In this document: positions 12,102-17,469 of the stretch, one piece after another
How the letters are laid out: the number at the start of each line of letters is the position of its first letter
How positions within the stretch are numbered: position 1 is the first letter of the stretch
Origin: Candidatus Omnitrophota bacterium
GTDB lineage: Bacteria > Omnitrophota > Gorgyraeia > Gygaellales > Profunditerraquicolaceae
DNA length: 64,000 bases
NCBI GenBank assembly: GCA_963805065.1
Contig: CAWDSS010000010.1
Span: 600,359 to 664,358, forward strand
Direction of reading: 5' to 3'
Position numbers and translations under genes: made by a program
Notes under the pieces: generated by a model
Told to the model about the DNA's origin: nothing
What the model saw: the letters and a program-made list of their open reading frames with translations, nothing else
Database searches by the model: none

Positions 12102-13490
12102 CTATCCCTGCTCTTTGATAGCTCCGACCATGTACAAATGGGTTTCATCAACGTTATCCATTTCTCCGTTGATAATTCTTTCGCATCCGCTAAGCGTATC
12201 TTCCAGGGAAATATAAAGACCTTCTTTGCCGGTATAGGTTTGAGCCGTAAAAAACGGCTGAGAAAGAAAATTCTGTAATTTGTGTGCGCGTTCAAAAATT
12301 ATTCTTTCGCTTGCAGAAAGTTCCTGTTTACCGATGATAGAAACGATTCTCTCCAGCTCTTCATACCTGCGGAAATGCCGAAGGATTTCCTGTGCCAGGT
12401 CATAGTGCCTCCTGTTTACAACCGCAGGGCTCATAGAATTGGCAAAAGATAACAACGGGTCAATTGCCGGATAAATTCCCCGCTGCACCAGCGACCGGGA
12501 AAGCACGATTAAATTATCCAGGTGGGCAAATATTGCCACAACCGCGGGGTCTGTCAGGTCATCCGCAGGGACATACACAGCCTCTATGGCTGTAATGCTT
12601 GAATTTCCTTTTGAGCGTATCCTTTCATGCAATTGGCTTATCTCGCTGGTGAGCGTAGATTGATAACCTCCTTCAGAAAGAATCCTTCCCAACAAGGTTG
12701 AAAGCTCGCTTCCTGCCTGGGCAAAACGGAATATGTTGTCGATAAAGAATAATACATCCTGCCTCTGGTCCAGAAGCTGTTCGGCTAAAGCAACGGCAGT
12801 ATGAGCTGCCTCGAATCTTGCCCCCGGGAATTCATTCATCTGCCCGAAGATCAAAATTGAACGCTTAAGCAGGTCCGTACGTAAGAATTCATAATAAAGC
12901 TCATTGCCCTCACGAATACGTTCGCCTACTCCGGCAAAAACGCATATACCGCTTTGGTAACTGATAATATTATGTATAATTTCCAAAATCAGGATAGTCT
13001 TACCCAGGGCTGCTCCTCCTAAAAGCCCGGTTTTTGAACCCTTGACCAACGGGAATAAAAGATCGATCATTTTAATCCCCGTGGGGATTATTTCATATTT
13101 AATCTCGCCATCCTGCTTTATCTGAAGGTCAGGAAGAGAAATAGCGCTGTGCACCGGCACCACTTCATCAAGGCTCAAATCTCCTTTATGGTCAATGGGC
13201 TTGGCCATGGCATTTAAGACCCTGCCGTAAAGCTGGCTTATCTGGCGCGGTATCACCAAACCCATCTTTTCCACCTCAACAGGCATATTACGGCCTACGC
13301 CGTAGGTAAAATCTAGGGCTATGCAGCGGCAGACATTATTTACGCGGTGCTCAATGACCTTAAGCGTAACCCCTTTGTTATCGGGCAATAAAATCTTTAG
13401 CAGGGAATTAATGGCAGGGAGGCTCACTGAGAAATTCACGTCCACCACTGACCCGTAAACCGCTATTACTTTGCCAAGATTGTCGCTCAT
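12102..13490 (-). CDS. atpD: F1 ATP synthase beta subunit (divergent)
   Basis: P-loop GGAALGKT; Walker B region [19 protein letters not shown]; [10 protein letters not shown]; C-terminal FLSQPFF. Last gene of the atp cluster. Confidence 0.88.
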
Positions 13491-13493
13491 GTT

Positions 13494-14336
13494 TTAGTGT
13501 CTACCTAATAGCCTTGACGCAGAAATCTCGCGAATCGTCTTATCAGAAAGGCCATGCAGGTACTTAAAATATTCCAGCTCCAAATGCTGGTTAATGCGTT
13601 TTAATTCCTGGAGGCTTGCCTCCAAATGCATGATGCGCGCGGCGAACTCCGCTAATTTACTGGACCAGAAAATCTGATAAAGCCTAAACCCCAACCACAG
13701 CTTGGCCCAGCCTTCAATGACCAGGCTTCGGCTTGGCTCAATAATAATATCTTCCTTTTTAACATCTGGATTTAGCGACGGGGGCGGCAAAGGCAACAGG
13801 GTTTCCGATTCAATCTGCTGAAGGGCAATATTCACGAACCTGGGATAAATTATCTGGATTTTACCGATTTCGCCTTTCCTGTAACGCTTAAAGCAATAGT
13901 CTCTTAACGGCTCCACGTGTTTGAATTCTAATTTTTCACTCGGCGAGGAAAAGGGAGTAAAATCCATCCCTACTTCTTCCAGGTACTCTGCTCCCTGGCG
14001 GCCTAAAACAATTATTTCATTTTCCCCCGATCTTATTTCCGAGAGCCTGTTAACTAATAGCACGTTTAACTCTCCTAAGAAGCCTTCATCGGAACTTACC
14101 AGGATAATAGCGGACGACGACGATTCAGGGCGCGGGCTGAAAAAGATACTGTTTGTAGCCAGCCCGGAAATCAAATTAATCCCTTCTTCCAGGGAGGGCA
14201 AAAAATCCCTTCTGGGCTCCTGGCGGGTGCGGAACTGGTTAAACTGCAAAGTTGCCGCCATCTTCATTACTTCTATGAGTTCATCCAGGTTTTTATTGAA
14301 TTTGAGATTCTCTTTTAATTTCGCAGCCGGTATCAT
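13494..14336 (-). CDS. atpG: F1 ATP synthase gamma subunit
   Basis: 280 aa between alpha and beta. N-terminal helix LIEVMKMAATLQFNQ and C-terminal helix ...TIREISASRL match the gamma pattern. Confidence 0.75.
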   Translation of the reverse strand: MIPAAKLKENLKFNKNLDELIEVMKMAATLQFNQFRTRQEPRRDFLPSLEEGINLISGLATNSIFFSPRPESSSSAIILVSSDEGFLGELNVLLVNRLSEIRSGENEIIVLGRQGAEYLEEVGMDFTPFSSPSEKLEFKHVEPLRDYCFKRYRKGEIGKIQIIYPRFVNIALQQIESETLLPLPPPSLNPDVKKEDIIIEPSRSLVIEGWAKLWLGFRLYQIFWSSKLAEFAARIMHLEASLQELKRINQHLELEYFKYLHGLSDKTIREISASRLLGRH

Positions 14337-14338
14337 TC

Positions 14339-15811
14339 CTACCCTACTTCAATTGTCCTAAAGAACTCCTGGATCGACTTATCCAGCCTTTCCTTTATCT
14401 GTTCGGTTAAATCGCCGTATTTGTCCAATTCATCGACGATACTGGCATTGTGTTTTAACAAGAATGTGAAAAACTCCTGCTTGAATTTCTTCACCTGCTC
14501 AATACTTATTGCCTCTAAGATCTTTTTATCAAAGGTATAGAACAGGACTATTTCTTCTGCCAGAGAAAGCGGGGCATTGTTTTCCTGCGTAAGAAGCTCA
14601 TACAGCGCCCTTCCTCGCTGCAATTGCGCTGTTGCCTCGGCAGATAACTTTGTACGCAGGCGTGTCAATCTCTGCAAAGACCGGTAATGCACGTATTCAT
14701 AACGTAAGCCCCTGCTTAAACTACGCATTGCAGGAGACTGCACCTTGCTTCCAATACGGGAAACTGAAAGCTCAAGGTCTATTGCCGGCTTAAACCCTTC
14801 CTGGAATAAACTCGTATTAAGATAAATCTGGCCGTCTGTCATGGAAACAAGATTAGACGGGATGTATCCGGTGATGTCACCTTGCAAGGTTTCGCACATC
14901 GGCAAAAATGTCATTGTCCCGCCGCCAAATTCCTGCCTTAAGAATCCGGCGCGCTCCATAAGCTGTGAATGCAGGAAAAATATATCTCCGGGGTATGCCT
15001 CTCTTCCCGGAGCCCGCTCCAGGAGTAAAGACATTTGGCGGTAAATCCAGGCGTGCTTGGTAAGGTCGTCAAATATTACTAATACGTCTTTGCCCTTATG
15101 CATAAAATATTCGCCCAGCGTAGCAGCAGTATAAGGACAGACGTACTGCTCGGCCGTAGATGAGCCTGCCGGAGCACATATTCCTATTGTATATTCCATG
15201 GCCTGCTTCTGGGCAACGGTCTGCATAATTTTTTTAAACGCAGCGTAATTGCCGCCAATCCAGCAGTAAATACAAATTACGCCTTTGCCTTTCTGATTAA
15301 TAATCGTATCTAAGGCTATTGAGGTCTTACCTATCTGGCGGTCTCCCACAATTAACTCGCGTTGGCCCTTACCGATAGGAATAAGCAGGTCAATAATTTT
15401 AATTCCCGTCATCAGCGCCTTATTTATAGGCTCGCGTTCCATGACACCTGCTGCCTCGCGAAAAACCGGGTTAAAATCCGAAGAGGTTATTTCTCCCTTG
15501 TCATCAAAAGGCCTGGCTAAACTATCGACAATCCTTCCGATAAAGTTTTCTCCAACAGGAATATATAATGGCCTGCCTTGGCTAGAAACAGTATCACCGA
15601 CTTTTACGCTGTACTCATCGCCAAAAACAATCCCGTAGACGCAGGAAGGATTAAACTCAATAACCATGCCTTTAATACGGCTGCCAGAAGCATTTTCGAA
15701 TTCTATAACCTGCCCGTAGATACAGTTAGGCAAGCCGCTTATCTTAATGATGCCCTGCCTGACTTCTTCTACTTTGCCTATTTCTTTTATTTCTATGGTA
15801 GGAATATGCAT
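14339..15811 (-). CDS. atpA: F1 ATP synthase alpha subunit
   Basis: P-loop GDRQIGKTSIALDTIINQ, DDLTKHA, REAYPGDIFFLHSQLMERA, SITDGQI-like SMTDGQIYL. Confidence 0.92.
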   Translation of the reverse strand: MHIPTIEIKEIGKVEEVRQGIIKISGLPNCIYGQVIEFENASGSRIKGMVIEFNPSCVYGIVFGDEYSVKVGDTVSSQGRPLYIPVGENFIGRIVDSLARPFDDKGEITSSDFNPVFREAAGVMEREPINKALMTGIKIIDLLIPIGKGQRELIVGDRQIGKTSIALDTIINQKGKGVICIYCWIGGNYAAFKKIMQTVAQKQAMEYTIGICAPAGSSTAEQYVCPYTAATLGEYFMHKGKDVLVIFDDLTKHAWIYRQMSLLLERAPGREAYPGDIFFLHSQLMERAGFLRQEFGGGTMTFLPMCETLQGDITGYIPSNLVSMTDGQIYLNTSLFQEGFKPAIDLELSVSRIGSKVQSPAMRSLSRGLRYEYVHYRSLQRLTRLRTKLSAEATAQLQRGRALYELLTQENNAPLSLAEEIVLFYTFDKKILEAISIEQVKKFKQEFFTFLLKHNASIVDELDKYGDLTEQIKERLDKSIQEFFRTIEVG

Positions 15812-15835
15812 TGTTTAGCTGTCAGTCGTCAGAAG

Positions 15836-16888: not shown

Positions 16889-16928
16889 CTTTGGGTGTTG
16901 TCATTTGTCATTACACTTTACACAATTA

Positions 16929-17141
16929 CTATTTCGTAAATAGATTGTACACAATTAACAACGCTAATACTGCGATTGCCTCGGCGAAAATAAAAGCCAA
17001 AATCATGGCTATGAATATCTTGGCAGATGCCGAAGGGTTGCGTGCCACGGACTTGACCGCCGAGAAACCGACCAAGGCAATTACAGCTGCCGGTCCTGCG
17101 GTGCTTAGGAACATGGTTATGATTAGAATTAAGTTCTGCAT
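16929..17141 (-). CDS. atpE: ATP synthase c subunit (proteolipid)
   Basis: 70-aa two-helix hairpin with loop ARNPSA (cf. ARQPE) and a carboxylate in FIFAEAIAVLALL. Confidence 0.8.
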   Translation of the reverse strand: MQNLILIITMFLSTAGPAAVIALVGFSAVKSVARNPSASAKIFIAMILAFIFAEAIAVLALLIVYNLFTK

Positions 17142-17143
17142 TG

Positions 17144-17228
17144 TCTAGGTTCTAGGCTATGGAATAGACTTCTGGGTTCTAGGTTATGGGTTCTGGGCTA
17201 TGTGCAAAAACCTAGAACCTAGAACCTA
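17144..17228. repeat. ~85-nt heptamer-based structured element filling the atpC-atpE spacer
   Basis: gtctaggttctaggctatggaatagacttctgggttctaggttatgggttctgggctatgtgcaaaaacctagaacctagaaccta. Confidence 0.9.
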
Positions 17229-17229
17229 A

Positions 17230-17469
17230 TTATGTTTCCACAAATATCTTTAATGCATTGCTCTTCATAAACGCAATGCCGTCTTTAATTAAAACCTGGT
17301 TCTGGGTTCTGGGTTCTGAGGAACACCTAATATTACCTTTTTTTAGCCTCATCAGGAATGGCTGATGAAAATCCAATACGCAAACTTCTCCGTCTTCAGT
17401 GGGTAAAGTCACCTGCCTTGCATTTCCTTCCCAGAGTACGCCTTTGGGTTCGAGTATACTTACCTGCAT
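17230..17469 (-). CDS. atpC: ATP synthase epsilon subunit, N-terminal beta-sandwich domain only
   Basis: 79 aa. LEPKGVLWEGNARQVTLPTEDGEVCVLDFHQPFLMRLKKGNIR aligns with the epsilon N-domain pattern (GE.g.L..H.P.l..L..G). It lacks the C-terminal helical hairpin. A heptamer repeat encodes SSEPRTQNQ. Confidence 0.65.
   Translation of the reverse strand: MQVSILEPKGVLWEGNARQVTLPTEDGEVCVLDFHQPFLMRLKKGNIRCSSEPRTQNQVLIKDGIAFMKSNALKIFVET
17296..17320. repeat. Direct heptamer run inside atpC
   Basis: ctggttctgggttctgggttctgag, read in-frame as SEPRTQNQ. Confidence 0.8.

Follow-up and report, generated by a model that had tools for sequence, protein, structure and literature searches.

A six-gene F-type ATPase cluster inside a secretion operon of Omnitrophota, with no subunit a in the sampled DNA

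A "symbiotic / non-respiratory" F-type ATPase (sF-ATP) is reported beside pilus clusters across Omnitrophota by Seymour et al. 2023 (Nat Microbiol; PMC10066038). In the passages of that paper given to this enzyme, the ATPase lies at most 10 kb from a type-4 pilus cluster in 57 of 66 contigs and is present in 56 of the 111 Velamenicoccia species as well as in every other Omnitrophota class. Its alpha subunit is said there to cluster with the Mycoplasma type 2/3 ATPases, and its beta subunit with Saccharimonadia and a Dependentiae relative. Here we analyze a six-gene F-type ATPase cluster in 64,000 nucleotides of DNA from a Candidatus Omnitrophota bacterium (GenBank assembly GCA_963805065.1, contig CAWDSS010000010.1, positions 600,359 to 664,358 of the forward strand). 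We call this whole stretch the window and number all features from its first letter. The window cluster is a member of the group of Seymour et al.: it belongs to Omnitrophota, it lies within 10 kb of a cluster for a type-4 pilus or type II secretion system (T2SS)-like machine, and its alpha and beta stand apart from the respiratory F-type (39-45% identical to the canonical proteins, with a beta clade, divergent lineage L040 included, at 100% bootstrap). Its genes sit inside a secretion operon and no subunit a accompanies them in the sampled DNA; with moderate confidence, we favor a role as a motor for the neighboring machinery.

Other reports bear on the ATPases of the phylum or on comparable gene sets. 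A KEGG orthology (KO) table in the part of the Seymour et al. material that we draw upon gives one genome with K02111, K02112 and V-type subunits and without K02108, and no KO is assigned there to c, b, gamma or epsilon either. In a 2026 preprint that covers 176 complete genomes, alpha and beta are recorded for 125 of them and gamma for just 30, and the complex is called incomplete. Williams et al. 2021 assigned V-type ATP synthases to Omnitrophota metagenome-assembled genomes, and West-Roberts et al. 2023 described the secretion locus beside giant genes, where the ATPase is not mentioned. Outside the phylum, N-ATPases have the gene order atpDCQRBEFAG (Dibrova et al. 2010, PMC2881411). The Mycoplasma type 2/3 clusters hold seven genes, four F1-like and three without similarity to known proteins, two of the latter being probable membrane proteins with 3 and 12 predicted transmembrane segments (Beven et al. 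2012).

The window cluster comprises six open reading frames (ORFs) on the minus strand (12102-17469) in the order epsilon-c-b/delta-alpha-gamma-beta, and the NCBIfam assignments of all six agree with Pfam. Epsilon (17230-17469, 79 aa) consists of the N-terminal domain only and is matched by PF02823 alone (E=6e-16), which covers residues 1-79 entirely. The c subunit (16929-17141, 70 aa) matches PF00137 (E=3.7e-8). The 240-aa product of 15951-16673 joins a b subunit to the delta C-terminal domain, with PF00430 on residues 6-134 and PF00213 (OSCP) on residues 144-232. Alpha (14339-15811) scores 560.8 bits with NF009884 (cut-off 554) and 533.9 with TIGR00962 (cut-off 484), gamma (13494-14336) matches PF00231 (E=4.8e-32), and beta (12102-13490) reaches 502.4 bits with TIGR01039 (cut-off 462.85). 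The original prediction, made from the letters of the DNA, had given this gene order, with a GGDEF regulator upstream (a response regulator-GGDEF protein at 17572-18453), no a-subunit gene, an epsilon of 79 aa devoid of C-terminal helices and a c subunit devoid of the GxGxGxG motif, and each of these statements is borne out. The 79-aa ORF, in particular, passes the hidden Markov model (HMM) of the epsilon N-domain. The prediction did not mention the shortened alpha, the restriction of the fused part to half of delta, the second repeat family or the secretion-system setting, all described below.

In a scan across species-representative genomes, the cluster was recovered at 26 Omnitrophota loci, every one of which keeps the order epsilon-c-b/delta-alpha-gamma-beta. 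The genes are intact and free of frameshifts in about 25 other Omnitrophota species, and in these relatives they are separated by spacers with medians of 2-12 nt. Identity between species is 66-77% for alpha and 64-76% for beta (loci L002-L032) and rises to 76-86% for c, the most conserved protein of the cluster; the neighboring secretion genes are no more conserved than the ATPase (GspE 59-75%, GspF 57-68%). Homologues of the b/delta protein number more than 130, measure 235-245 aa and, where named, usually come from Candidatus Omnitrophota. The divergent lineage L040, whose beta is 54% identical to that of the window, carries the same six genes and, after them, GspE, PilM/N, PilO, GspF and GspG; a was not found at this locus. 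The L040 beta itself (5088-6872 of that locus) is 594 aa long and carries a C-terminal extension of about 130 aa with a faint PatA_N match.

Alignment with canonical proteins, taken from loci L033-L039, reveals which functional residues are retained. Alpha keeps the P-loop GDRQIGKT and the arginine finger (SVSRIG), and beta keeps the catalytic glutamate and the Walker B motif FFIDN. The Walker A sequence of beta is GGAALGKT in the window and GGAA[LC]GKT across the family. It had been listed in the original prediction among the departures from a canonical cluster; the sequence is there and is family-conserved, but it is still a valid Walker A motif. The DELSEED segment of beta has become KQELSASE, with most of its acidic residues gone, and gamma is very divergent (about 20% identity to canonical gamma). 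By its intact catalytic motifs, the F1 head is apparently complete, conserved and active. The epsilon orthologues are 74-81 aa long and none of them has the C-terminal helices. Among 24 aligned orthologues of c, the glutamate in FIF[AS]EAIA and the loop ARNPSAS are invariant, and helix 1 has GPAAVIA where GxGxGxG is expected, a motif conserved across the family.

The peripheral stalk is simplified. The OSCP match in the b protein spans only positions 81-168 of the 172 in the profile. In a PDB sequence search, residues 6-153 of this protein align with residues 7-154 of Escherichia coli b, and residues 158-234 with residues 100-174 of delta. An AlphaFold2 model (mean predicted local distance difference test 84.8) has a long helix at residues 2-134, a second helix and a small alpha/beta domain. 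The C-terminal ~68 residues of the model superpose on the delta C-terminal domain and on the mycobacterial b-delta at 1.5-1.8 Å, and the model as a whole also resembles the V/A-type stalk subunit E. The fusion is thus a full-length b (transmembrane helix plus long helix) joined to only the C-terminal half of delta. A b-delta fusion with no separate delta gene had been predicted; the OSCP match supports it, with the reservations that only the C-terminal domain of delta is present and that the architecture is known from N-ATPases. On the opposite side of the contact, alpha has no counterpart to the ~18 N-terminal residues of the canonical protein, which form the helix for binding the N-domain of delta, and in the PDB matches of alpha the query residues 5-11 align to chain residues 21-35. 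Since the N-domain of delta is absent and so is the alpha helix on which it docks, the two were lost together. The best conserved stretch of b/delta is the membrane-proximal segment at residues ~28-59, RLNxLHEENL...EELKRA, which includes several invariant residues and has no counterpart in canonical b. The segment hints at a binding partner near the membrane, and its conservation implies that this partner is conserved as well.

Subunit a is absent from the sampled DNA, that is, from the 64-kb window and the related loci. The a-subunit HMM used in this search combines sequences from operons of the canonical, N-type and Patescibacteria types with that of E. coli. It recovers the positive controls (8/8, E<=1e-70). 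Against six-frame segments of the window it gives nothing below E=0.27, and it has no match in about 27 Omnitrophota loci, which represent two divergent lineages and were searched with flanks of up to 10 kb on each side. PF00119 does not appear in the precomputed Pfam lists of the related loci. When the subunit a of a reduced operon outside the group (L042, discussed below) was used as a protein query, the top 120 matches were all close Patescibacteria relatives, with no Omnitrophota a among them. Subunit a may be missing from the genome as a whole. A conserved neighbor of 234 aa was considered as a substitute and rejected; it looks like a signal peptide followed by a single C-terminal transmembrane helix and has no Pfam match.

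The ATPase genes form part of a conserved block, which runs in the order giant protein, ~230-aa protein, Peptidase_MA_2, response regulator-GGDEF, ATPase, GspE, GspF, PilM/N, GspM, GspG and pseudopilins. The order holds in every related locus whose contig extends far enough; a more distant locus (L032) is without Peptidase_MA_2 and response regulator-GGDEF. In relatives, the median spacer from response regulator-GGDEF to epsilon is 2.5 nt. Beta and GspE are separated by a median of 2 nt, and in several genomes the two overlap (-1 to -11 nt); these short spacers and overlaps place the ATPase genes inside the secretion operon. In the window, GspE starts 166 nt after beta. Directly upstream of epsilon, the response regulator-GGDEF diguanylate cyclase (minus strand) has an intact GGEEF motif. 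The GspE/PilB-type secretion ATPase (10322-11935, minus strand; PF00437, PF05157; NF053729 at 51.1 bits, cut-off 38) bears an MshEN N-domain that binds cyclic di-GMP (c-di-GMP). At nearly all related loci these two genes stand on either side of those for the ATPase. The pairing of a cyclase with a c-di-GMP-binding GspE on the two sides of the ATPase suggests that the whole block is under shared c-di-GMP control.

Further along the minus strand (4585-10314) lie GspF, a PilM/N fusion, GspM, GspG, minor pseudopilins, GspJ and GspK, which are type II secretion-like genes for an inner-membrane assembly and a pseudopilus. The GspG scores 129.3 bits with TIGR01710 (cut-off 88.85), above the threshold for a T2SS major pseudopilin. 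The upstream part of the block (18462-47377, minus strand) encodes Peptidase_MA_2, the 234-aa membrane-anchored protein, the giant protein, a DUF2341 protein, regulators and two secretins. The giant protein (20176-38664, minus strand; 6162 aa) is built from many Kelch-like repeats (AAYNGY[LM]YIMGG) and long Thr/Ser/Trp-rich Ig-like repeats, and its C-terminal ~1000 residues are 36-57% identical to giant proteins encoded upstream of the ATPase cluster in other species. The two secretin genes, GspD/PilQ-like, are arranged in tandem upstream of the giant gene (43315-45867 and 45812-47377, minus strand), and one of them has a C-terminal TPR extension. Between secretins and giant gene there is a pair of histidine kinase and LuxR-type response regulator genes, and a small nucleotidyltransferase-like ORF (DUF6036 / AbiEii toxin-like; 40312-40755, minus strand) sits between the regulators and the DUF2341 gene.

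The junctions of the cluster contain two kinds of repeat in this genome. The first is a REPIN-like perfect hairpin of 24-25 bp at the c/b junction (16824-16891), with sister copies at b/alpha (15833-15901) and beta/GspE (11977-12047). The folding energies of the hairpins are -33 to -38 kcal/mol (z -5 to -10). The window holds 23 arms of the repetitive extragenic palindromic (REP) type, and hairpins occupy about 12 intergenic sites. It also encodes, on the plus strand (3659-4396), a Y1 (IS200-family) transposase ORF with a Y1_Tnp match that resembles the REP-associated tyrosine transposases (RAYTs). A family of that name is its best NCBIfam match, at 62.3 bits, under the cut-off of 80. The ORF is bracketed by single inverted REP arms (3717-3732 and 4441-4456) of the same 16-25-nt REP as the hairpins. 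Hairpins and transposase together look like a REPIN/RAYT system. The original prediction of REP doublets between c and b and between b and alpha was right about the hairpins, with the reservation that they are not a feature of the ATPase. They occur genome-wide, and in most relatives they are absent from the same junctions, where there are only a few nucleotides. Because most relatives are without the junction repeats, these belong to this genome and not to the ATPase system.

The second kind is a ~90-nt repeat of CCTAGAACC (family D1, 85-100% identity), which ends at the ATG of b (16696-16791); its copies before c (17136-17231) and before epsilon (17464-17559) end exactly at the start codons. 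Further members of the family lie at 6026-6512, 39416-39481, 40218-40233, 41567-41847 and 43209-43315. The window contains 28 exact 9-mers of CCTAGAACC, compared with 0.37 expected. The family has also entered ORFs (the epsilon insert, the DUF2341 protein and pseudopilins), and the reading frames are unbroken. In epsilon it encodes a 5-aa in-frame insert, EPRTQ, in a variable loop; the insert is specified by GAACCCAGAACCCAGAACC (GAACCCA repeats, 17298-17323), which has the same heptamer theme as the intergenic CCTAGAACC repeat, and orthologues have other inserts or none at this loop. An Rfam scan of the intergenic repeats returned only spurious miRNA-hairpin matches far under the gathering scores. 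A promoter and terminator consensus scan stayed near the shuffled background (15 vs 11.9, and 13 vs 7.5), in a scanner whose loop limit the REP hairpins exceed.

We read the Omnitrophota non-respiratory ATPase group as an ATP-hydrolyzing rotary motor that serves the adjacent secretion/pilus machine and the giant protein, and not as an ATP synthase; this is the account to which we give moderate confidence. In the proposed mechanism, the group and a type II secretion / type IV pilus-like system would be transcribed together, beside the gene of a giant surface protein. The encoded parts would supply a competent alpha3beta3 head, a central stalk of gamma and epsilon, a c-ring and a simplified b-deltaC stalk. 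ATP hydrolysis would drive rotation, with an epsilon that does not carry the inhibitory C-terminal domain, and the counterpart of the c-ring or of the b anchor in the membrane would be something other than subunit a. The ATPase and the secretion machine would share c-di-GMP control. Hydrolysis is suggested because the inhibitory domain of epsilon is missing, V-type ATP synthases have been assigned to Omnitrophota in published surveys, and Mycoplasma provides a precedent, in which an F1-like X0 ATPase powers the surface system MIB-MIP. The direction of operation and the coupling to secretion are what we infer, the link to secretion from gene order.

Several findings weigh against this account. 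Alpha and beta pass the NCBI equivalog cut-offs for ordinary atpA and atpD. The c glutamate and the whole of helix 2 are invariant, as ion translocation against a subunit a would predict, and c is still like that of the a-containing operon L042 (45% identity). The transmembrane and membrane-proximal segment of b is, moreover, the best conserved part of that subunit. The conserved membrane partner would be either an unlinked a or another protein of the locus. For the second case we consider a truly a-less rotary F1/c-ring motor, whose torque would go to a component of the type II secretion-like platform or would help to export or anchor the giant protein, under c-di-GMP control; it is a tentative proposal, and we would call it doubtful as it stands.

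The first case leads to a conventional F-type ATPase that translocates ions, as an H+ pump or as a synthase. Its a would be encoded elsewhere, and its position in the operon would reflect a local need for membrane potential or simple co-regulation. The same invariant c glutamate, together with the ARNPSAS loop, the likeness of helix 2 to the a-containing Parcubacteria-type operon, the conserved membrane segment of b and the equivalog scores of alpha and beta would all suit such an enzyme. The absence of a from KO-based tables is, in addition, weak evidence, because the KO scan overlooks c, b, gamma and epsilon as well, although their genes are demonstrably there. Against a conventional pump stands the contrast between six genes that are always contiguous, with spacers of 2-12 nt, and an a that is never found within 10 kb in about 27 loci. 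Both of the nearest outgroups (L041 and L042) keep a within the operon, and the published surveys call F1Fo incomplete in most complete Omnitrophota genomes. On balance we think a conventional pump rather unlikely.

If a is truly missing, the motor proposed here would join the Mycoplasma F1-like ATPases as a second, independent example of an F-type motor that powers a cell-surface machine. As c-ring and stator would still be in place, the use of torque in the membrane would then be new. The cluster bears on how the ultra-small, probably predatory Omnitrophota deploy giant proteins. It is also miscounted in KO-based metabolic reconstructions, which record it as an incomplete F1Fo or take it for chemiosmotic ATP synthesis.

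The affinities of the cluster were assessed from beta, with an HMMER scan that covered 1.84 billion representatives and a neighbor-joining tree with 100 bootstraps. The beta clade is isolated: in the scan its own representative is 54% identical, and all others are at most 48%. In the tree the clade, with L040 in it, is recovered at 100% bootstrap, although the deep branching is not to be over-read. Its sister is the beta of the reduced operon L042, with a support of just 62%. The clade joins the N-type beta alone in 0/100 bootstraps and the Mycoplasma G1 beta in 0/100. Scores with curated HMMs and the beta tree place the window ATPase nearer to the ordinary F-type than to the Mycoplasma type 2/3.

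Membership in the Mycoplasma type 2/3 "F1-like X0" family has been brought into discussion by the clustering of alpha reported in the pertinent passages of Seymour et al. 2023 (PMC10066038). The likeness is real in some respects. The M. mobile gliding G1-ATPase and the MIB-MIP ATPase are F1-like, do not serve ATP synthesis, are tied to a surface or attachment machine and have no a, and the type 3 alpha is, as in the window, without the N-terminal delta-binding helix. In Mycoplasma, however, unrelated membrane proteins (X0) replace c and b, whereas the window cluster retains a bona fide c and b/delta and has none of the three extra genes. All Mycoplasma models score below their cut-offs (MSC_0619 340.8 vs 520, MSC_0618 370.2 vs 570, MMOB1660 413 vs 600, MMOB1670 376.5 vs 850), and all four scores are also below those of canonical atpA/atpD. 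The G1-ATPase beta is a poorer PDB match of the window beta than canonical beta (318 vs 428 bits), and the tree never unites the two. To judge from these comparisons, the "type 2/3" label that Seymour et al. gave to the group is not supported, and we consider the membership very improbable.

A degenerate or derived N-ATPase, that is, a Na+ pump, we likewise hold to be highly improbable. N-ATPases (PMC2881411) do share with the window the absence of a delta gene and a long b (240-250 aa) that ends in a delta C-terminal domain and has been likened to the V/A-type subunit E. TIGR03321 aligns over residues 6-230 of b/delta, and the N-type b of the Planctomycetes operon L041 aligns over its full length. 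This same N-ATPase operon provides the best-scoring beta outside the clade, and N-ATPases, according to the literature, also occur beside another rotary ATPase. But they have a, AtpQ, AtpR, a full-length epsilon and a Na+-type c, in a different fixed order and away from any secretion-system context. The window cluster has no a, AtpQ or AtpR, and PF09527 is not in the Pfam lists of the related loci. The Na+ ligands are incomplete in its c: the sequence of helix 2 is F[AS]EAIA, and helix 1 has no second glutamate or glutamine. The N-type NCBIfam models score far below their cut-offs (alpha 503.3 vs 750.5, beta 469.4 vs 752, b 49.1 vs 224.7, gamma 17.3 vs 282), in line with the 0/100 bootstraps. 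As for a decaying remnant of an atp operon, which the missing a, the truncated epsilon and the repeats between genes of the window genome might recall, it is scarcely credible. Some 25 species keep every ORF intact, the proteins are highly conserved in sequence and the catalytic motifs are invariant; the cluster is not decaying.

The reduced operon L042 (5911-11612 of its locus) is instructive as an a-containing counterpart. Its genes specify an atpI-like protein, subunits a and c, a membrane protein of 66 aa, a b of only 122 aa, alpha (476 aa), gamma, beta and epsilon (76 aa), with no delta, and the named closest relatives of its subunit a are proteins of the Parcubacteria group (Patescibacteria). 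It is another minimal solution to the peripheral stalk. Operons of this type have in common with the window a short epsilon, the absence of a delta gene, an alpha shortened at the N-terminus and a c that is 45% identical; they differ in that a is kept, the gene order is the usual one, there is no b-delta fusion and there is no secretion-system context. Compared with canonical F1Fo (atpIBEFHAGDC), the window cluster has homologous alpha, beta, gamma, epsilon N-domain, c and b, and keeps the catalytic residues and the c carboxylate. It differs in that a was not found, that neither a free delta nor a delta N-domain is present and that the N-terminal helix of alpha is gone; epsilon, without its C-terminal helices, is the first gene, and the cluster lies within a secretion operon. 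The group of Seymour et al. (PMC10066038), in turn, has been in print since 2023 and, in the passages of the paper that concern it, has not been dissected subunit by subunit. Its make-up (missing a, presence of c, b-deltaC fusion, short epsilon and alpha N-terminal deletion) is not described in them and is what the window adds. With that group the window cluster shares the phylum, an adjoining pilus / T2SS-like cluster with giant ORFs, and an alpha distinct from respiratory alpha.

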